A DNA stretch of 40,000 nucleotides from positions 17,625 to 57,624 of the forward strand of contig NZ_PXXX01000022.1 in assembly GCF_003367505.1 (NCBI RefSeq), read 5' to 3'. Source of the DNA: Lysinibacillus capsici. GTDB lineage: Bacteria; Bacillota; Bacilli; Bacillales_A; Planococcaceae. Below are positions 2,442-40,000 of the stretch, in pieces; position 1 is the stretch's first letter; each line of letters begins with the position of its first letter. The notes beneath the pieces were generated by a model that made no database searches, was not told where the DNA came from, and saw nothing but the letters and a program-made list of their open reading frames with translations. The translations under genes and the position numbers were made by a program.

Positions 2442-3401
2442 ATGACTATTTATACGGCTGCGAACTATGCGGTAGATGACGACTCATTTACCCAGGCTTT
2501 TTTAAAGCAGAATCATTCACAATTCTGGCTACCCGAAGAAATATCGCTAACACCCGATTTATTGACTTGGAAAGCTCTTTCAAAAGAAGAACAAAAAGCA
2601 TATATGCGTGTACTTGGAGGATTGACTTTACTTGATACAGAACAAGGAGTTGGTATACCTCGATTAATTCCTCATATTAAAGGGCATCAACGACAAGCGT
2701 TGCTTACCTTTATGTCAGCAATGGAAAACTCGGTCCATGCCAAGTCGTACTCTAACATCTTCTTAACTTTGGCAAATCGTGAGGAAATTAAAGAAGTATT
2801 CGATTGGGTACGGGAAAATCAGTATTTGCAAACAAAAGCTGACGTTATTGTGACGCAATATAAGGCAATCAAAAACAATGATGATATTTCACTTTATAAG
2901 GCGCTAGTTTCGTCAGTATTCCTTGAATCGTTCTTATTTTACAGTGGTTTCTACTACCCACTGTATATGTACGGACAAGGAAAATTAATGCAGGCTGGGG
3001 AGATCATAAACTTAATTATTCGTGATGAAAGCATACATGGTGTCTATGTCGGTTTATTAGCGCAAGAAATCTATAACCGACACTCATCAGATGTACAAAG
3101 CGAATTGTCTGCGTGGGTACATGAGACACTCGAAAAGCTATATCAGAACGAGGCGTTATATACAGCAGACATTTATGATGATGTCGGTTTGACATACGAT
3201 GTACTTAATTTCGTTCAGTACAACGCAAATAAGGCATTATCTAACTTAGGATTTGACGCTTATTACACACATGACAACTTTAATCCAATCGTTTTAAACG
3301 GACTATCAACGAAAACAAAATCGCATGATTTCTTTTCAATGAAAGGTAATGGGTATAAAAAAGCAACTGTCGAACCAATTCAAGACTCGGACTTCTATTA
3401 G
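2442..3401 (+). CDS. nrdF: Class Ib ribonucleoside-diphosphate reductase beta subunit
   Basis: 319 aa, E/H metal ligand pattern ([22 protein letters not shown]), adjacent to nrdE. Confidence 0.95.
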
Positions 3402-9840: not shown

Positions 9841-10191
9841 ATGAAAACACGAAAATCAACCGCAAAAGCGATTTTAACGAATTTGCATGCACTACGACAA
9901 CGCAGATATGTCGGAGATTTAGATGCTAGCGATACGCTAATTGACTTTGAAAGAGCGTGTCAGATGGCGAAATTGACGAAAAGGCAGTTTGAGGCTATTC
10001 GATTTGTATATGACATCGGATTGACGCAGAAGGAGGCTGGTGAGCGAATGGGAATTGGTCAAGACGTAGTAAGTTCTCATATTGATGCTTCTGCGACTAA
10101 GCTAGATGAGATATACGAAATGTGGGCATGGATGGACGCTGAATTGACGTTAAAAGGTTTTAAAGGTGTGGGGGAAAATGCTACATGCTAA
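9841..10191 (+). CDS. Sigma-70 region 4-like transcriptional regulator
   Basis: LTKRQFEAIRFVYDIGLTQKEAGERMGIGQDVVSSHID helix-turn-helix; GGAGG RBS. Confidence 0.8.
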   Translation: MKTRKSTAKAILTNLHALRQRRYVGDLDASDTLIDFERACQMAKLTKRQFEAIRFVYDIGLTQKEAGERMGIGQDVVSSHIDASATKLDEIYEMWAWMDAELTLKGFKGVGENATC

Positions 10192-10921: not shown

Positions 10922-11008
10922 ATGATGACTGTTACTTTTGTCTTAATTGGTTTAACATGGATAGTAATAGGAGCAACTTTTATTACTATTCGAAAAAATA
11001 AACGATAG
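10922..11008 (+). CDS. Small hydrophobic single-TM peptide
   Basis: ATG ATG ACT GTT ACT TTT GTC ... CGA TAG, about 28 aa: MMTVTFVLIGLTWIVIGATFITIRKNKR; upstream AGAGGA. Confidence 0.45.
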   Translation: MMTVTFVLIGLTWIVIGATFITIRKNKR

Positions 11009-11022
11009 GTGGCGGAAATTAT

Positions 11023-11256
11023 ATGTCTGAAAATTACTCTTTCAACTCACGTGAAGAATTAACAGAGTATATAATAGATGAAATCATTAATACAACTGAA
11101 GCATTAGAAATACTTCAATGCTCACGACAAAATCTGAACAACTTAGTGAAACGTGGTGTGTTAACACCAATTAAAGATCTACCGAGAGATAGATTGTTCT
11201 TTAAGGAAGATATTGTTAAGCGTAAAAATGATATGGATAAGAAAGCTAAAAATTAG
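11023..11256 (+). CDS. Helix-turn-helix DNA-binding protein
   Basis: 77 aa, EALEILQCSRQNLNNLVKRGVLTPIKDLPRDRLFFKEDIVKRK resembles MerR/excisionase-type HTH_17. Confidence 0.7.
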   Translation: MSENYSFNSREELTEYIIDEIINTTEALEILQCSRQNLNNLVKRGVLTPIKDLPRDRLFFKEDIVKRKNDMDKKAKN

Positions 11257-11281
11257 CACATCAAATTGGTGTGCTTTTTTT
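11254..11281 (+). terminator. Rho-independent terminator
   Basis: AGCACATC-AAATT-GGTGTGCT followed by TTTTTT. Confidence 0.85.
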
Positions 11282-11415
11282 ATCCTATATCCATACTTTA
11301 TATCGTTTTGTACCTTTACATTATAGGAAGGTAAGAATCAAGCAAACTCACGTAACTAACGCAAGATGTAAAAGGCTCGGTTATATTATGTGAAAAGAGT
11401 ACTGTTTTAAGGAGG

Positions 11416-11610
11416 TTGCTGTGGATGACAAACAATAAATTTTACTACGCATATTCACCTAATCTATATCGATATTTAAAGGCGACAGGTTTCCGTTATA
11501 TTTGTACTGGACTTAATGAATCAACCATGCGTCAGTTCTGGCAATATGAACGCACACCAGAACTAAGCGCAGCCCTTACGTCATATGCGGAGAATAAGCC
11601 TTCTAAATAA
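11416..11610 (+). CDS. Hypothetical protein
   Basis: 64 aa ORF with AAGGAGG upstream. Confidence 0.6.
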   Translation: MLWMTNNKFYYAYSPNLYRYLKATGFRYICTGLNESTMRQFWQYERTPELSAALTSYAENKPSK

Positions 11611-11634
11611 GGCAGTGCTAGGAGGTTAAGTGGA

Positions 11635-12108
11635 ATGATGGTAAATCAAACGAAACGTGGATTCGTACAGATTTCTAACGCTATATTCACGCACTATAAC
11701 TTTTATCCGAAGTATAATGGTACTTCAATACAAGTTTACGGGTATCTTACAAAATTAAATAACTCCGATTATGGATATGCATTTCCGACTAATATACAAG
11801 TTATGCGAGATTTAGGGATTAGCGATAAAACCTTTAATAATGCGGTAAAGACGCTTGTTGCTTGTGGATTGGTGACAGTTTGTAAACATAAAGGAGCGAT
11901 GTTTCACAACAACTTGTATTATGTACATGAACCTATAGAAGATATGACGGAGTTTTTCGCTAAGTATCCAGAAGCAAAAGAGGTGTGGGAAGCGAAACAA
12001 GCAACGGTTGATAAAGTAGCTAGACGAAAGTCAGTTGATAAAGAAGCGTATAAAGATGCTCAGACAGCAGCAAAAAGTGATGTAGACGCTGTTTTAGAAT
12101 GGTTATGA
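11635..12108 (+). CDS. Winged-helix (HTH_36-like) DNA-binding/replication-initiator-like protein
   Basis: YGYLTKLNNSDYGYAFPTNIQVMRDLGISDKTFNNAVKTLVACGLVTVCK. Confidence 0.7.
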   Translation: MMVNQTKRGFVQISNAIFTHYNFYPKYNGTSIQVYGYLTKLNNSDYGYAFPTNIQVMRDLGISDKTFNNAVKTLVACGLVTVCKHKGAMFHNNLYYVHEPIEDMTEFFAKYPEAKEVWEAKQATVDKVARRKSVDKEAYKDAQTAAKSDVDAVLEWL

Positions 12109-12118
12109 CAGATAGCAC

Positions 12119-12348
12119 ACAGTAGTTTTTACTGTACGACACAGTAAAATTTACTGTAAGGCACAGTAGTTTTTACTGCGTATAAATATTTACCGTATAA
12201 ATATTTACTTATAAATATTTACTATAAATAATTCCATTTACGATTATTTGCTAACGCAAATAATCGTAGCTATCAATAATAATATATCTTAGTGTAATTC
12301 TTTTAAATAATACGATAAAGAAATACACCTCACAGTAATTTTTACTGT
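12119..12348. repeat. Array of ACAGTA-N5-TACTGT palindromes with an AT-rich triple repeat and a hairpin
   Basis: Palindromes at 12119-12135, 12141-12157, 12163-12178 and 12332-12348; TATAAATATTTAC at 12181, 12196 and 12210; perfect inverted repeat at 12239-12268. Confidence 0.85.
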
Positions 12349-12385
12349 GCGCTATTTGCGATGTTATTAATGGTAAAACTAAAGT

Positions 12386-12420
12386 AAAAAAAGACACCCT
12401 AACAATAAATTAAGGCGTCA
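12386..12420 (-). terminator. Rho-independent terminator for reverse-strand genes
   Basis: Reverse strand GACGCCTTAA-TTTATTG-TTAGGGTGTC followed by TTTTTTT. Confidence 0.75.
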
Positions 12421-12431
12421 ACAATCATTGA

Positions 12432-12548
12432 TTATTCTATATGTGATTCGTATTTTCTCGGATTTGGCTGGTCTTTTTCAAGTAGCCATACACGACCAAT
12501 CTTACGACAAAAGACTTCTCGCGGCACTTTTTTAGTCGTTGTTTTCAC
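12432..12548 (-). CDS. Small hypothetical protein (38 aa)
   Basis: GTG start, VKTTTKKVPREVFCRKIGRVWLLEKDQPNPRKYESHIE; overlaps the end of the upstream reverse gene, just before the reverse-strand terminator. Confidence 0.35.
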   Translation of the reverse strand: MKTTTKKVPREVFCRKIGRVWLLEKDQPNPRKYESHIE

Positions 12549-12729
12549 CTCGTTTGTTGATTATTTCTAGTATGGTGTTAACTATGAAAAGAATGACAAT
12601 TAAGACGTACAGTGCTATGAAAAAATAGTCTGACGTCGTTAGATTATTAAAGTCTGTTGTCCGAGGAATTAAAATGCTCAGTGCAATGATGATAGCAATG
12701 TCAAATATTCGTTTGAGAGTCGTTTGCAT
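12532..12729 (-). CDS. Small membrane protein
   Basis: 65 aa with two predicted hydrophobic segments. Confidence 0.55.
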   Translation of the reverse strand: MQTTLKRIFDIAIIIALSILIPRTTDFNNLTTSDYFFIALYVLIVILFIVNTILEIINKRGENND

Positions 12730-12788
12730 ATTGTTAGTGGTTACGATAAAATACTAAGTATAAAGGAGGCGCTAACCTCCTTCATATG

Positions 12789-12995
12789 CTACTTGCGACG
12801 TTTTCCTTTGCGATGGGGGCGTCGCTTTTTGTTGTTCTTACGCTTGTTATTCTTTAATTGCTGTATGTTGAGAGCAAATGAAGAAAGTCCGCCTAAGATA
12901 CCAACAATTGTAGCTATGTGTTTTAGTATAGCTTCGTAATCCACTTGGTTCACCTCCTTTTCTATACTCTTATTATAACATTCGCATTGACCCAC
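12789..12995 (-). CDS. Small membrane protein with very basic C-terminus
   Basis: KHIATIVGILGGLSSFALNIQQLKNNKRKNNKKRRPHRKGKRRK; likely real start is an internal GTG after GAGGTG (MDYEAILK...). Confidence 0.5.
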   Translation of the reverse strand: MGQCECYNKSIEKEVNQVDYEAILKHIATIVGILGGLSSFALNIQQLKNNKRKNNKKRRPHRKGKRRK

Positions 12996-13065
12996 GTCTA
13001 TATAAAATACCGTATTTTTAACGTTAATTTACCGTAAAATTTTAAGAAAGGAACGATGCTAGGAT

Positions 13066-13437
13066 ATGACTAAATTAAACGATAAACAAATTGCTGCTAT
13101 TACGATACTAAGTCAACCGAAACGTGGTGGGCTTACTTATAAAGAAGTTGCAGAGGAAGTTGGAGTAGCAGAGTCAACACTGCATTTGTGGCGCAAAAAT
13201 GACGCATTTAATGAAGAACTAAAGCGACAGATTATGCGTGATACGATTGATAGATTACCAGAAGTAATGGCGTCTATACCTGATCATATTATTAATGACG
13301 GCAATGCAGCGTTATTCAGAACGTTATTACAAGCGCATCAAATGCTAACAGAGAAAGTTGAAGTGTCAGACGGTAATAAAGGTACAGATATTGATGCGAT
13401 TAAGGCAGAGATTGAACGTATGAGAAAAGGTGAGTGA
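13066..13437 (+). CDS. Terminase small subunit-like (helix-turn-helix, phBC6A51-type)
   Basis: LNDKQIAAITILSQPKRGGLTYKEVAEEVGVAESTLHLWRKNDAFNEEL; AAAGGA RBS; upstream of the large terminase. Confidence 0.82.
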   Translation: MTKLNDKQIAAITILSQPKRGGLTYKEVAEEVGVAESTLHLWRKNDAFNEELKRQIMRDTIDRLPEVMASIPDHIINDGNAALFRTLLQAHQMLTEKVEVSDGNKGTDIDAIKAEIERMRKGE

Positions 13438-14102
13438 TTGGGAGAAACTCCGAAAAGGGGAATGAATAGTCTATTTATATAGGAAGAAACTATGAATAGT
13501 AGACGAATTGGTGTACGAGCGGTTCGGAGTGTGTAGTGTGGTTTATTGGGCAACAGCCGAGAATGGACGCGTACCTAAAACGCTTTGAAAGATAGGGTGT
13601 ATATGGATAGTATAGAGGCGGTAGGATATGCAGGATTTTATACAAATATAAGAGAAATCGCTATCCGATTACTATTAGTAAGTGTACGTAAATAGAGGGA
13701 TTATGGCGTGTGTATAAGAATTTGCATACGCTTATTTTACCTACAAAAGACAAACGTTGATATATCAATGGTTGAAGATAAATCTATTTTACATAATTAA
13801 GCTTATGGGAAGTTAGAAACGAATAATTATTCACTCACTATTCAATGCGTTAAATAAACGTTAATGATTTGAAATTCTCCCAAGCCGCCTATTTTCAAAT
13901 CGCTGTTTCTGATGGCAAACAAATCAGCGCACCAAAATTTCACTTTGGTCTTACGGAAAGCAACCGTTAATTTGTATCATTGTTTAACGGTTCTAACGTA
14001 GCCTACACGTCGTTCTGCGTAATCAAAAGATAAAATATAAGGAACGTATTTAAAACGCTAAATAAACGCGAATAAACAGCTAAAATGAAAGGAGGCGCTA
14101 AT

Positions 14103-15833
14103 ATGGCGTGGGTAAATGGAGAATGGTTAGATCGAAATAAACGCGAAGCATTAATCGCAGTGTATCGTGAGTACATCGATACTATAGACGCAAAGTATTC
14201 GGATTCAGCCGGCGAAGTCGATATTGACGGCATCATTAGCGCTGGCCTTATCGAAGATTATCACGCAAGGTTGAAAGAGCTTAATCGCCTAGAACGTATC
14301 CATCGATGTGAGGACGATTTACTTTACTTCGTCTATCAGTATTTTGCGGACGAGTATAATCCGGAAAACGAAGTCAACTTAATTCCGAAGGGGCAGCGAT
14401 ATGAAGATGCGGCGGAGTTTCACAAGGAATTGTGTAGATTGCTTGATGATATAGCAAAAGGAAAGTCTGCATCAAACGTAGCATGGTCGGTAGGCCGACG
14501 CCACGCAAAGACCGCATATTTGTCTAACGCATTTTTATGCCACCAAGTTGTGTATCGCAAACAAAAGTATATCATCGAAGTATCGGAAACTACAGACGTA
14601 GCAGCCGATTTCATAAAGTTTACTGCGCAAAATCTAAAGTTTAATGAGCGCTTACGTGCGGACTTTGGCGAACTATTGTTCCAAAAATCACAAGCTAACG
14701 AAGTTGATAATAAGCTTGAATTTATTACGACTAGCGGTACGAAGGTCGAAGCTAAAGGGATGGGAACGCAAATGAGGGGACTTCGACACCTTAGCGAACG
14801 CCCTGGGCTTTTTTTGCTAGACGATTTAGAAAGCAACTCGAATACCAATACGCCAGAACTTCGAACAAAGAATCTTCACTGGTTTCGTTCCGAAATGATG
14901 GAGGCGTTAGGTTTCGGTGGTATTTGTATCTATATGGGTACTATTCTTGGGCCAGATTCATTGCTTAACCACGTAATCACACAAAGAAAAGACTTTATCA
15001 GCCGTAAGTTCCCTGCGATTTTATCCTGGACAAAGCGCGAGGATTTATGGGATCAGTGGCGTGAGATTTATAATAGCGACGATGTAGCTTCCAATGAAAA
15101 AGCAAACGCCTTTTACGTAGAAAACGAAAAAGAGATGCTACACGGAACTAAAACGTTATGGCCACAGATGTACTCATATAAATACTTTATGGAAAAACGT
15201 GAATCAATGGGTGGGAGAGCGTTCAACCAGGAGTATCTCGGAAATCCTACCGACCCGGATTCACAAATTTTTAAACCAGAAGAATTTTCTTATTTCTACG
15301 AATCTGAATTAGACGGAATGAAAGTCGATTATTATGCGGCTGTGGACTTTGCAATGGGAAAAGAAAAGGGCGATTACTCTGCTATTATTACGCTAGCAAA
15401 GAATCAAGAGACAGGGACTTGCTACGTAGTTGATACATTTATCGAACGAGTACACCCGGATAAATTGCTCGAAACAATCGTAGAGAAGGCACTTAAATAT
15501 CAATACGCTGGAATTGCGGTAGAGGCACAACAGGCACAAGAGTGGTTCGCTCATAAGGTAAAAGAAGAGTTACATCGAAAAGGTTATCCAGGAAGTACAC
15601 GAGTAAAGGAAGTTAAACAACGGATGCGAAAGGCGCTGCGCATTGAAGCGTTGTTGCCAGATATACAAAACGGTAATATCCGATTTAATAAAGGGCATCG
15701 ATTATTAATTGAGCAATTAGAACTGTATCCGAATGCTCGGCACGATGACGGCCCGGATGCACTTGCGATGGCATACGATGTCGCAAGAAGTGTACGTAAG
15801 ATAGAATTACAGCAAAAGCCATCATGGTTATAA
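14103..15833 (+). CDS. Terminase large subunit
   Basis: ATPase region ASNVAWSVGRRHAKTAYLSNAF, LFLLDDLESNSN, nuclease DYYAAVDFAMGKEKGDYSAII..DGPDALAMAYD. AAAGGAGG precedes ATG 14103 (the track opens at 14085). Confidence 0.93.
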   Translation: MAWVNGEWLDRNKREALIAVYREYIDTIDAKYSDSAGEVDIDGIISAGLIEDYHARLKELNRLERIHRCEDDLLYFVYQYFADEYNPENEVNLIPKGQRYEDAAEFHKELCRLLDDIAKGKSASNVAWSVGRRHAKTAYLSNAFLCHQVVYRKQKYIIEVSETTDVAADFIKFTAQNLKFNERLRADFGELLFQKSQANEVDNKLEFITTSGTKVEAKGMGTQMRGLRHLSERPGLFLLDDLESNSNTNTPELRTKNLHWFRSEMMEALGFGGICIYMGTILGPDSLLNHVITQRKDFISRKFPAILSWTKREDLWDQWREIYNSDDVASNEKANAFYVENEKEMLHGTKTLWPQMYSYKYFMEKRESMGGRAFNQEYLGNPTDPDSQIFKPEEFSYFYESELDGMKVDYYAAVDFAMGKEKGDYSAIITLAKNQETGTCYVVDTFIERVHPDKLLETIVEKALKYQYAGIAVEAQQAQEWFAHKVKEELHRKGYPGSTRVKEVKQRMRKALRIEALLPDIQNGNIRFNKGHRLLIEQLELYPNARHDDGPDALAMAYDVARSVRKIELQQKPSWL

Positions 15834-38759: not shown

Positions 38760-39127
38760 TTGAAGTTTATAGCTAAAATTATATCGATTAATATAGGGAT
38801 AATGCTTGAAAAAGATAAAAGTCCTTTTTTTATTAAAGGTCTCTTTTCATTACTTTCCGAGGAAGATAAGTAATTATTAACCTGAATGTTAATTGTTATT
38901 TGTTCTTTTCTGTGATTAATTTTATTTGTCATATTTAATATCAACCTTTCTAAAATTTAATTAGGTGTGGGCCTATATATAATTTTAAAGAAGATTTTTT
39001 TTATAAAAAAATACAAGAAAAGAACCTTTGGGGATGATCTTGTTAATTTTTAATCTGATTTACTTGTTATTTAGTTTTAAACTTAAAATATTATTTATGA
39101 GAACATTGAAAATAAGTATTTTAGTAC

Positions 39128-39164
39128 GTTTCATGAAACAAAATTTTTTTATGTTTCATGAAAC
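39128..39164. repeat. Two copies of GTTTCATGAAAC palindrome
   Basis: Copies at 39128-39139 and 39153-39164, 25 bp apart. Confidence 0.8.
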
Positions 39165-39379
39165 ATTTTTTTTATTATCTAGTGATTTAATTGTGCCACA
39201 GCTAGCAACGATTAAGTGACTACCTATGCAAACATGGCATTGAAACCGCAGGTGGAAAAATTGTTAAATCAACATTTAAACAAAGAACTACAAACTTAAT
39301 TACCACTCATTCCTTGATTTACATGTATTTTTGTTCTGACAAGGATAGTATCGTCAGTTATGTTTAACCATGCCATTCC

Positions 39380-40000
39380 TTATTCACGCCAGTTTAAATC
39401 TATGAAGCTACTGATGGCATCTTTAATTCTGTTAACAGGCGAACCTACCTCATCCACTACATGAGCCAATAGGGAGGCCCAGGAGTGATGCGATTCACCA
39501 TTTCTATTTACATACCTTAAGATCTCTTTAAACTCTCTCAATTGCGATTCAGATAATTCCTGTTGTAAAAATTCTTTTATATAAGAATTTACAAAGCGTG
39601 CCTGGCTCATACTGATTTCTAATAGAATTGCAGTTGCTCTTGATACTGTACAATCTAGTGAAAATGCTAATAAAGCTATTGCAGAATACTCACTTTGAGA
39701 AAACCTAATAGTTACCCTTTCACCTGGAACATTGATTCGTTTACTAATAGTTTTGTTAGTAACATGGCCTCGAAACATAGTGTTGTCGAATAGTAAATCT
39801 CGCTTGAAAAATTGGGACAAGTGTTCAATCGTTTTCCGATCTTTAATAACAAACATACATAGTGATGGGCAAACATCTTTGACTGGGGTGTAGGTAATGT
39901 TCGATAAACGATAAATTGCATCTTTTAAATCCAATTTTAGAGTGGGCTTTACATCACGTTTTTTATCTGAGCGTTGACCTCTTACTCCCTTTTTTTCCAC
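39380..40000 (-). CDS. Hypothetical protein, possibly truncated by the window edge
   Basis: 206 aa reverse-strand ORF; start is the last base triplet of the window so it may extend beyond. Confidence 0.65.
   Translation of the reverse strand: MEKKGVRGQRSDKKRDVKPTLKLDLKDAIYRLSNITYTPVKDVCPSLCMFVIKDRKTIEHLSQFFKRDLLFDNTMFRGHVTNKTISKRINVPGERVTIRFSQSEYSAIALLAFSLDCTVSRATAILLEISMSQARFVNSYIKEFLQQELSESQLREFKEILRYVNRNGESHHSWASLLAHVVDEVGSPVNRIKDAISSFIDLNWRE

Follow-up and report, generated by a model that had tools for sequence, protein, structure and literature searches.

What is the function of a short, highly organized stretch of non-coding DNA that lies directly behind the gene for a small DNA-binding protein in a phage region of Lysinibacillus capsici? 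The locus is part of a 40,000-nucleotide stretch of contig NZ_PXXX01000022.1 (assembly GCF_003367505.1, positions 17,625 to 57,624 of the forward strand), which we call the window and whose own numbering is used throughout. In this stretch, a plus-strand gene at 11635–12108 encodes a 157-residue winged-helix protein and is followed by phased palindromes, AT-rich repeats, and a hairpin. A sequence-only reading of the window had suggested that these elements constitute a replication origin, a centromere, or an operator, composed of binding sites, unwinding-type AT repeats, and a hairpin that act together with the upstream winged-helix protein. Comparative evidence strongly backs this layout: in every phage or prophage relative examined, the array directly follows the end of the gene, the palindromes change with the protein, and the AT-rich repeats are the DNA that is easiest to melt. 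Among the three functions, an origin is favored, because the protein resembles only the N-terminal domains of initiators and a second module of the same kind heads a replication gene cluster; a centromere is disfavored, and an operator is still a rival. With confidence slightly above even, we hold that the conserved module at 12109–12365 is an iteron-type phage replication origin and that the 157-residue protein is its private, minimal initiator.

Three palindromes of the form ACAGTA-N5-TACTG(T) occupy positions 12119–12135 (dyad 1, ACAGTAGTTTTTACTGT), 12141–12157 (dyad 2, ACAGTAAAATTTACTGT), and 12163–12179 (dyad 3, ACAGTAGTTTTTACTGC), and both their coordinates and the exact 22-bp pitch that had been described for them held. 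When all 40 kb were scanned for this pattern with at most one mismatch, nine strand-hits were found compared with 0.67 expected, and none of 100 shuffled sequences reached nine. Eight of the nine hits fell in the module locus, including a fourth copy at 12332–12348 (dyad 4, ACAGTAATTTTTACTGT), 169 bp after dyad 3, and the pattern did not recur ahead of other operons in the 40 kb. This fourth palindrome, a fourth AT-rich repeat, and the linkage of the module to a small terminase gene and a genome end had been missed in the sequence-only reading. Dyad 4 and its flank (12349–12358) pair with dyad 1 and its left flank (12109–12135), so that the entire module is enclosed by an inverted repeat of 27 nt. 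Dyad 3 has a degenerate right arm (TACTGC in the window, and degenerate in all lineages), which is joined to the first AT-rich repeat by a conserved CG. As in dyad 1, the inverted arms of the window dyads converge on an A/T tract, ACAGTA-(G/A)TTTT-TACTGT. The dyads are thus semi-palindromes of the kind that characterizes RepA_N iterons, which are tandem semi-palindromes with inverted arms converging on an A/T tract (PMC7145576, PMC5703833).

The AT-rich repeats are 13-mers. The three units reported at 12181, 12196, and 12210 are exact copies of TATAAATATTTAC, and a degenerate fourth unit, TATAAATAATTCC, begins at 12223, so that the window has one more unit than the three found in relatives. 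No 13-mers were found elsewhere in the 40 kb. We propose that this block (12181–12235, plus strand) is a DNA unwinding element. First, the least stable 60-bp segment of the 40 kb, as calculated from nearest-neighbor stability, starts at 12180. Second, the block contained the least stable 40-bp segment in all 10 of the related loci tested. Third, in the only cultured relative, Sporosarcina phage Lietuvens, it was the least stable segment of the entire 64.5-kb genome at lengths of both 40 and 60 bp. The assignment thus rests on computed duplex stability and is a thermodynamic inference rather than the outcome of an unwinding assay. Finally, variation in copy number (four units versus three) is a change that an unwinding element would tolerate.

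A perfect inverted repeat, TACGATTATTTGC-TAAC-GCAAATAATCGTA, which had also been described, was borne out at 12239–12268 on the plus strand. Its 13-bp arms are longer than those of any other perfect short-loop inverted repeat of the window, and only one of 100 first-order Markov simulations reached this length. Its DNA fold energy was –12.3 kcal/mol (z = –8.5), and the entire module, folded as a single strand, gave a z-score of –8.2 relative to shuffled sequences. Among 11 loci, stem pairs 2–8 were represented by two to four types of Watson-Crick pair each, the TAAC loop was present in eight, and the closing C-G pair was present in all. Because the stem changes compensate each other and the asymmetric loop and closing pair are kept, the comparison of sequences points to selection on the hairpin as a structure of one strand, not as a duplex binding site. 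The most distant relatives retain hairpins without the TAAC loop. An intrinsic terminator was ruled out, as a T-run is missing on both strands. Beyond the hairpin, a plus-strand spacer motif at 12297–12326 (TTCTTTTAAATAATACGATAAAGAAATAC) was conserved in the module alignment, which included 12 loci, and was unique in the window; the motif AATACGATAAAGAAATAC had no second occurrence in the 40 kb. As defined by this alignment, the cis-module extends from 1 bp past the stop codon to a conserved right flank (12109–12365). An Rfam scan of 11000–14200 found no known RNA family in the module.

How widely is this arrangement conserved? The protein family contains ~148 representatives at 50% identity, mostly of 140–200 residues. 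Locus context for the array was available for ~20 of them, on contigs from metagenomes, IMG/VR, and genomes. The order of elements is stop codon, three dyads at 22–23 bp, three 13-mers (four in the window) at 13–15 bp, and hairpin. The upstream part of this layout was present in every phage or prophage relative examined, a set of about a dozen lineages with protein identities from 97% to 28%, and in each of them the array starts no more than ~15 bp past the winged-helix stop codon. In Lietuvens, for example, ORF96 (open reading frame 96) is 39% identical to the 157-residue protein, and its stop codon is followed directly by three GGTA-N5-TAC dyads at a 22-bp pitch. Next come three 13-mers, which are TATATATACTTAC or closely similar, then a hairpin with a TAAC loop and imperfect pairing, and, 156 bp further, a fourth dyad. 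Dyad 4 was found 147–169 bp past dyad 3 in nine of the 12 aligned loci and was absent from L003/L010 and L016/L017. A genome-wide pattern scan gave a convincing family member in seven of 119 loci, the rest being mostly chance matches; an eighth (L043) was marginal, with an E-value of 3e-4. A Halobacillus locus (L032) has a different arrangement.

The dyads and the 13-mers evolve differently. Depending on lineage, the half-sites of the dyads are CAGTA/TACTG, CGGTA/TACCG, GGTA/TAC, ATCACT/AGTGAT, CGTAAC/GTTGCG, ACTGCA/TGCAGT, or CGCAC/GTGCG. These changes are symmetric in both arms, as expected for sites bound by a dimer, and the 22–23-bp pitch is kept in all loci. The recognition-helix region of the protein varies in parallel with the half-sites across ~ten lineages, and the GTA-N5-TAC core of dyad 1 was invariant in the 12 aligned loci. 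The 13-mer consensus, TATAnAnAyTTAC, is the most conserved part of the module and is kept in relatives with only 28–34% protein identity. That the 13-mers stay constant while the initiator sites differ completely across lineages suggests that the 13-mers have a conserved reader.

What kind of protein is associated with these sites? The 157-residue protein matched Pfam HTH_36 above the cut-off (2.9e-6), with a weak match to RP-C and with TrmB, MarR_2, and HTH_24 also listed. An AlphaFold (AF2) model, with a predicted local distance difference test score of 90, places a long C-terminal helix (residues 112–156) after a helix-turn-helix and a beta wing. Family assignment and model agree with its earlier description as a winged-helix protein. 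The family alignment also revealed a conserved acidic-aromatic C-terminal tail, D..EWL. Matches to PHROG families included a DnaD-like loader (2.4e-11), replication initiation proteins (2e-07), and O-like proteins (2.3e-06, to 5e-4), and covered only the N-terminal ~100–130 residues of initiator and loader families of ~300–450 residues; overall, the N-terminal domains of PHROG replication initiators gave weak, single-domain matches with scores of 2e-11 to 1e-3. A search of the PDB with a 43-sequence family profile retrieved, at ~4e-4, the N-terminal domain of DnaD (2vn2) and the N-terminal domains of RepA_N proteins of staphylococcal plasmids (4pql, 5kbj, 4pt7, and 4pta). The top Foldseek match was 4pql_B, the N-terminal domain of pSK41 RepA (E-value 6.2e-4, TM-scores 0.47/0.55), and further matches to 5kbj (a Rep-DNA complex), 4pt7, 2v79 (DnaD-N), and 4pta were interleaved with MarR-like folds. 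Because the sequence, profile, and fold matches reach only the N-terminal domains of initiators, the 157-residue protein looks like an initiator origin-binding domain that lacks the usual recruitment domain. Neither the RepA_N model (PF06970), Phage_rep_O, nor the G38P family (PF09524) was matched in the Pfam scan of the protein, and it is an HTH_36 protein rather than a member of the sigma-like late-activator families (RinA/ArpU). One 3816-residue protein (P0006) has an unusual architecture of many domains in tandem, with 12 separate stretches that match the winged-helix family (E-value 1.9e-33).

The strongest contextual argument for a role in replication is that there are two modules with one grammar and that one of them lies within replication genes. 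ORF38 of Lietuvens encodes a 109-residue protein with an initiator-like winged helix (2e-12) and 24% identity to ORF96. It heads the Lietuvens replication cluster, 5′ of the genes for a DnaC-like loader, helicase, primase, and Pol I. Behind it come repeats of 23 bp, then three AT repeats of 15 bp, and a hairpin with a TAAA loop. This second module (L019 9894–10063, at 29.9 kb in Lietuvens) is ~33 kb from the terminase gene, within the replication region. The same arrangement is found in relatives of Lietuvens (L025 2820–2995, L024 2830–2990, and L026 1290–1420), and contig 3300014613_000623 has an identical hairpin, GCGTCAGC-TAAA-GCTAACGC, in its module next to the small terminase gene (L015) and in its second module (L025). 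By analogy with oriL and oriR of phage SPP1, genomes with two modules probably have two origins.

Homologues of the protein are also encoded by small plasmids. Proteins of 152–164 residues with HTH_36/DnaD_N matches are encoded by Bacillus cereus pBFR_1 (7.3 kb; gene at L028 1940–2434) and by a 7.5-kb plasmid of Planococcus sp. N022 (gene at L029 5351–5809). No known Rep family was detected among the ten ORFs scanned, which are part of the ORFs of both plasmids. In the Planococcus plasmid, related 13-mers (TATACAGACTTAC) occur in tandem ~160 bp 3′ of the homologue gene and are bracketed by a 23-nt inverted repeat (L029 5949–6105). This plasmid evidence is suggestive of a role in replication but is not proof; both plasmids may represent a cryptic replicon type.

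Could the module instead control transcription? In the window and its relatives, it precedes the gene for the small terminase subunit (terS), and the winged-helix protein could be a temporal activator or repressor of the operon after the module, mostly the terminase operon. As parts of such a switch or relay, the three phased dyads would form a cooperative tripartite operator like λ OR, the 13-mers would carry promoter elements, the hairpin would be a stem-loop with a UAAC tetraloop in the 5′ untranslated region of the RNA, dyad 4 would be a downstream operator looping to dyads 1–3, and the second Lietuvens module would be an analogous switch for the replication (middle) genes. λ OR and OL have three 17-bp dyads at a pitch of ~two helical turns with a distant looping site, and the late activators of Gram-positive phages, such as RinA and ArpU, are usually encoded just upstream of terS. 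In all phage relatives, the winged-helix gene is 5′ of terS, either directly or with a few ORFs between. In loci where the module is followed by a plus-strand gene, as in most relatives, dyad 4 lies 20–70 nt from the start codon, too close for a promoter of its own to fit between. In AT-rich relatives, a spacing of 16–17 nt between TTTACT (dyad 3, right arm) and TATAAA (second 13-mer) resembles that of –35 and –10 elements. A regulatory cascade would be compatible with two modules at the boundaries of two operons, and MarR-type winged-helix regulators score close to initiator domains in the fold search.

Other observations conflict with a switch. The sigma-A-like –35/–10 arrangement is not kept in GC-richer relatives, and no conserved promoter was found over the sites. 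Sigma-70-type promoter matches were at the level of chance (18 found, 15.8 expected), and those in the module were weak (9/12). The module motifs recur before no other operon in the 40 kb. An extra 15-bp unit is tolerated in the 13-mer block, and in Lietuvens this block is the thermodynamic minimum of the whole genome, a degree of instability beyond what a promoter requires. By sequence, the protein matches initiators, not CI/Cro-type repressors or sigma-like late activators, and a separate sigma region-4 protein is encoded at 9841–10191. Moreover, unlike OR/OL and the RinA/ArpU systems, the array is 3′ of its own gene, and it is insulated from terS: in the window, two small minus-strand ORFs, each with its own terminator, separate the module from the terminase gene, and terminators on both strands part it from the terminase operon. 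On balance, we regard a transcriptional switch as unlikely, although it is the main competitor of an origin.

The linkage to terminase genes also raises the possibility of a role in packaging. Even relatives with only 28% protein identity keep synteny with terS and a gene for a T7-type large terminase. Lietuvens has a 437-bp direct terminal repeat between its small and large terminase genes. The repeat starts at 64081, ~1.03 kb after dyad 4, which places the Lietuvens module ~1 kb before the right terminal repeat. A packaging-linked element might be a terminase recognition site, in which the 13-mers would correspond to the cosB/pacL repeats bound by the small terminase and the winged-helix protein would be a specificity or bending factor. 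Alternatively, it might be an origin or hairpin device of the right end, from which synthesis would run through the terminal repeat and so give two copies per packaged genome. The 13-mers, like the small terminase, are conserved across lineages, and the dyads are not; in T7, concatemers are processed with the help of transcription and of an inverted repeat that forms a hairpin, both near the right end. The array, however, is fixed to the winged-helix stop codon and not to the terminase gene or the termini, its distance from the terminase gene varying from ~20 nt to more than 2 kb; the Lietuvens terminal repeat is 1.03–1.26 kb away and has no motif in common with the module; the second module, with its shared grammar, is far from the terminase gene; and the plasmids that encode homologues of the protein are free of terminase genes. 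We consider a packaging-linked element improbable, and a pac or cos site in particular was down-weighted, as the Lietuvens module is ~1 kb from the terminal repeat and the second module is distant from the terminase gene.

One version of this idea would retain an origin. If initiation were coupled to packaging, the initiator-plus-origin cassette, which in phages with T7-type terminases is always just 5′ of terS and the terminal repeat, would start synthesis to the right, across the one terminal repeat present at a concatemer junction, with the strand-specific TAAC hairpin as a priming or turn-around signal. Were such a right-end origin real, it would solve the problem of duplicating the terminal repeat and would explain the two modules, one serving bulk replication and the other end duplication. 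We regard this version as very improbable.

The third function that had been suggested, a partition centromere, would make the winged-helix protein an adaptor like ParR, TubR, or Alp7R and the phased repeats the centromere of a plasmid-like prophage. Phased repeats beside the gene for a small DNA-binding protein do resemble parC or tubC, and Lietuvens encodes an actin-like partition protein. In the window and related loci, however, no gene for ParA, ParM, or TubZ adjoins the module; in Lietuvens, ~36 kb separate the actin-like gene from the module, and a small partner gene, ORF35, lies directly downstream of it; and neither an unwinding-type AT block nor a strand-specific hairpin has a role in known centromeres. 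A centromere was rejected on the basis that no partition nucleoside triphosphatase is encoded near the module, and we give it almost no credence. The Lietuvens gene pair itself (ORF34–ORF35, L019 6258–7351), a ParM/Alp-type actin-like gene with a small partner, belongs to a phage whose annotation includes terminal repeats, and may point to an intracellular stage in which the DNA is plasmid-like or organized.

Several observations weigh against an origin. The homology of the protein to initiator domains, as judged from sequence comparison, is weak (E-values of ~1e-4 to 1e-11), generic MarR-like regulators score nearly as high as initiator domains in Foldseek, and the HTH_36 domain is described as "conserved in many transcription regulators" (PMC3832669). 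The 157-residue protein is without the C-terminal domain by which DnaD-like, O-like, and RepA_N initiators recruit helicase or primase. Its gene is always linked to terS and not to replication genes, and Lietuvens has other initiator-like proteins (ORF36 and ORF38) beside a helicase loader. Wherever a plus-strand gene follows the module, dyad 4 holds its place shortly before the start codon, a typical position for an operator. Counts of DnaA boxes were at the level of chance, with none inside the module, although this matters little for a phage with its own replisome. Finally, cumulative GC skew rose monotonically with gene strand both in the window and across the complete Lietuvens genome and showed no inflection at either module, a result that speaks neither for an origin nor against one.

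If the module is an origin, how might it work? We infer each step of the following mechanism. Dimers of the 157-residue protein would bind the three dyads, which lie on one face of the helix at their 22-bp pitch, and would bend or wrap the DNA. The resulting stress would melt the adjacent 13-mer block, the least stable DNA of the region. The neighboring inverted repeat could then extrude as a hairpin of one strand, displaying its TAAC loop (GTTA on the other strand) as a signal to the helicase loader, helicase, or primase of the phage, whose recruitment might depend on the long C-terminal helix and acidic-aromatic tail of the protein. Looping back of dyad 4 over the intervening ~150–170 bp could serve either to close the complex or to restrict how often it fires. 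Such an origin would be part of the last non-coding stretch ahead of terS and, by analogy with Lietuvens, would lie 1–2 kb before the right terminal repeat.

Origins of several known types share parts of this organization. RepA_N theta origins, found in plasmids of Firmicutes such as pSK41 and pTZ2162 and in the PLE satellite of Vibrio, use a winged-helix dimer as an initiator, as proposed for the window module, and one related to the N-terminal domain of DnaD; RepA_N domains are among the best PDB matches of the window protein by both profile and fold. The window protein differs in matching HTH_36 only, without Pfam RepA_N, and in having just 157 residues, without the host-specific C-terminal domain that binds DnaG in pSK41. 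The window repeats, in addition, follow the gene rather than lying in the middle of it and are succeeded by a triple 13-mer and a conserved hairpin, and the element resides in a tailed phage of virulent type with its own helicase, primase, and polymerase. The λ origin consists of four 19-bp imperfect inverted-repeat iterons beside an AT-rich tract that is unwound (PMC7466680). It resembles the window module in its dyad-symmetric iterons and AT-rich region, in the type specificity of iterons and initiator, and in transcription through the origin (PMC7466680), and O-like PHROG families match the window protein weakly. Unlike the window module, the λ origin lies inside the O gene and has four adjacent sites rather than three adjacent and one distal, and the C-terminal domain of O recruits P-DnaB. 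The window initiator is a single domain with a helical tail, its origin is 3′ of its gene, and its AT region consists of exact 13-mers.

In SPP1, oriL and oriR each combine initiator boxes with an adjacent AT-rich unwinding element (PMC5737612). This phage of Firmicutes likewise has two regions bound by initiator, one in the replication genes and one elsewhere, and an initiator (G38P) without an AAA+ domain (PMC5737612). One SPP1 protein binds both origins, however, whereas the two Lietuvens modules come with separate short winged-helix paralogues; oriL is located within gene 38; and, as already noted, PF09524 was not detected in the window protein. The unwinding elements of E. coli oriC and of iteron plasmids are tandem AT-rich 13-mers, three or four in number, beside initiator sites. 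This design is reviewed in sources cited in PMC7145576 (its reference 41). The 13-bp AT-rich tandem block directly beside the proposed initiator sites of the window is similar, but its 13-mer is unrelated in sequence and the module has no DnaA boxes.

Taken with these comparisons, the module probably works like an iteron origin but outside the RepA_N and λ O families, as the Pfam models of those families were not matched, the origin is not inside the gene, and the C-terminal domain is missing. No description of such a module was found in the literature searched. What is new, in an element that is probably an origin, is the combination of a minimal private initiator, 13-mers conserved in sequence, a strand-specific hairpin, two modules per genome, and a location that is always ahead of the terminase gene and the end of the genome.

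The genes around the module fit a tailed phage. Upstream in the window are the nucleotide-metabolism genes nrdI, nrdE, nrdF, phoH, dUTPase, and thyX, then genes for a 3D-domain protein and a cytosine methylase. The gene for the sigma region-4 protein comes next, followed by an excisionase-like helix-turn-helix gene, a DUF5659 gene (11416–11610, plus strand), and the winged-helix gene; the DUF5659 gene is a recurrent 5′ partner of the winged-helix gene, with the same neighbor in L006 and L021. Downstream, the conserved 3′ neighbor of the module is the terS gene (13066–13437, plus strand; HTH_Tnp_1_2, phrog_2538 at 3e-19), which is followed by a 648-bp gap, the T7-type large terminase gene (14085–15833), and a portal gene. 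The window appears to belong to a Bacillales tailed phage of ~59–61 kb, as near-identical contigs of that size exist. A megablast search of 50,697 phage records with 11000–13500 gave no match, and Lietuvens was found only by searching at the protein level. The gap between the terminase genes (13438–14084) is non-coding and contains a palindrome (13751–13774) and a terminator-like hairpin (13705–13732); by analogy with Lietuvens, it is likely to be the site of the genome termini of the window phage.

Several other features of these loci were observed. The two minus-strand ORFs between the module and terS (12532–12729 and 12789–12995) encode small, hydrophobic proteins, one with a very basic tail. 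Their terminators are at 12419–12393 and 12786–12759, and a convergent plus-strand terminator is at 12810–12825. The Rfam scan gave a sub-threshold match to the Bacillus SR6 antitoxin RNA at 12757–12836 on the plus strand (23 bits, E-value 0.7), and together the ORF pair and this match may represent a type I toxin-antitoxin-like insert between the module and terS, which is missing from most relatives. Beside the terminal repeat, the interval between the two terminase genes repeatedly contains a short recombinase gene: a gene resembling a fragment of a tyrosine integrase (~180 residues) at L002 590–1138 (Lietuvens ORF2) and L022 9748–10287, and a resolvase gene between the terminase genes at L003 7681–8256. 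In L006, which is near-identical to the window, a minus-strand ORF of 127 codons (2677–3060) about 1 kb 5′ of the winged-helix gene matches the rolling-circle Rep family Rep_1; the corresponding place in the window is free of large ORFs. Elsewhere in the window, past the lysis genes, a very AT-rich non-coding region (38800–39350) contains the least stable 40- and 100-bp segments of the 40 kb and, at 39118–39167, two 25-bp tandem repeats that each include the palindrome GTTTCATGAAAC. It is probably an early control region or a set of operators beside a minus-strand ORF at 39380–40000.

If the module is an origin, it is an unusually legible one, with a single-domain initiator of 157 residues and a site of 250 bp that can be divided into four parts: the dyads that would confer specificity, the 13-mer unwinding block with its conserved sequence, the strand-specific hairpin, and a distal site for looping. 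Nature already offers some ten variants of differing specificity for swaps of dyads and proteins. How DNA is melted and handed over to helicase and primase is still an open question for RepA_N proteins (PMC7145576), and such an origin would offer a compact system for studying how winged-helix initiators of the DnaD/RepA_N type, which have no ATPase domain, carry out these steps. The module also provides a practical marker for annotating origins in poorly studied Bacillales phages related to Lietuvens, and possibly in small cryptic plasmids that have no recognizable Rep gene. Finally, because the module is always linked to the terminase gene and to the end of the genome, initiation of replication and packaging may be coupled in these phages.

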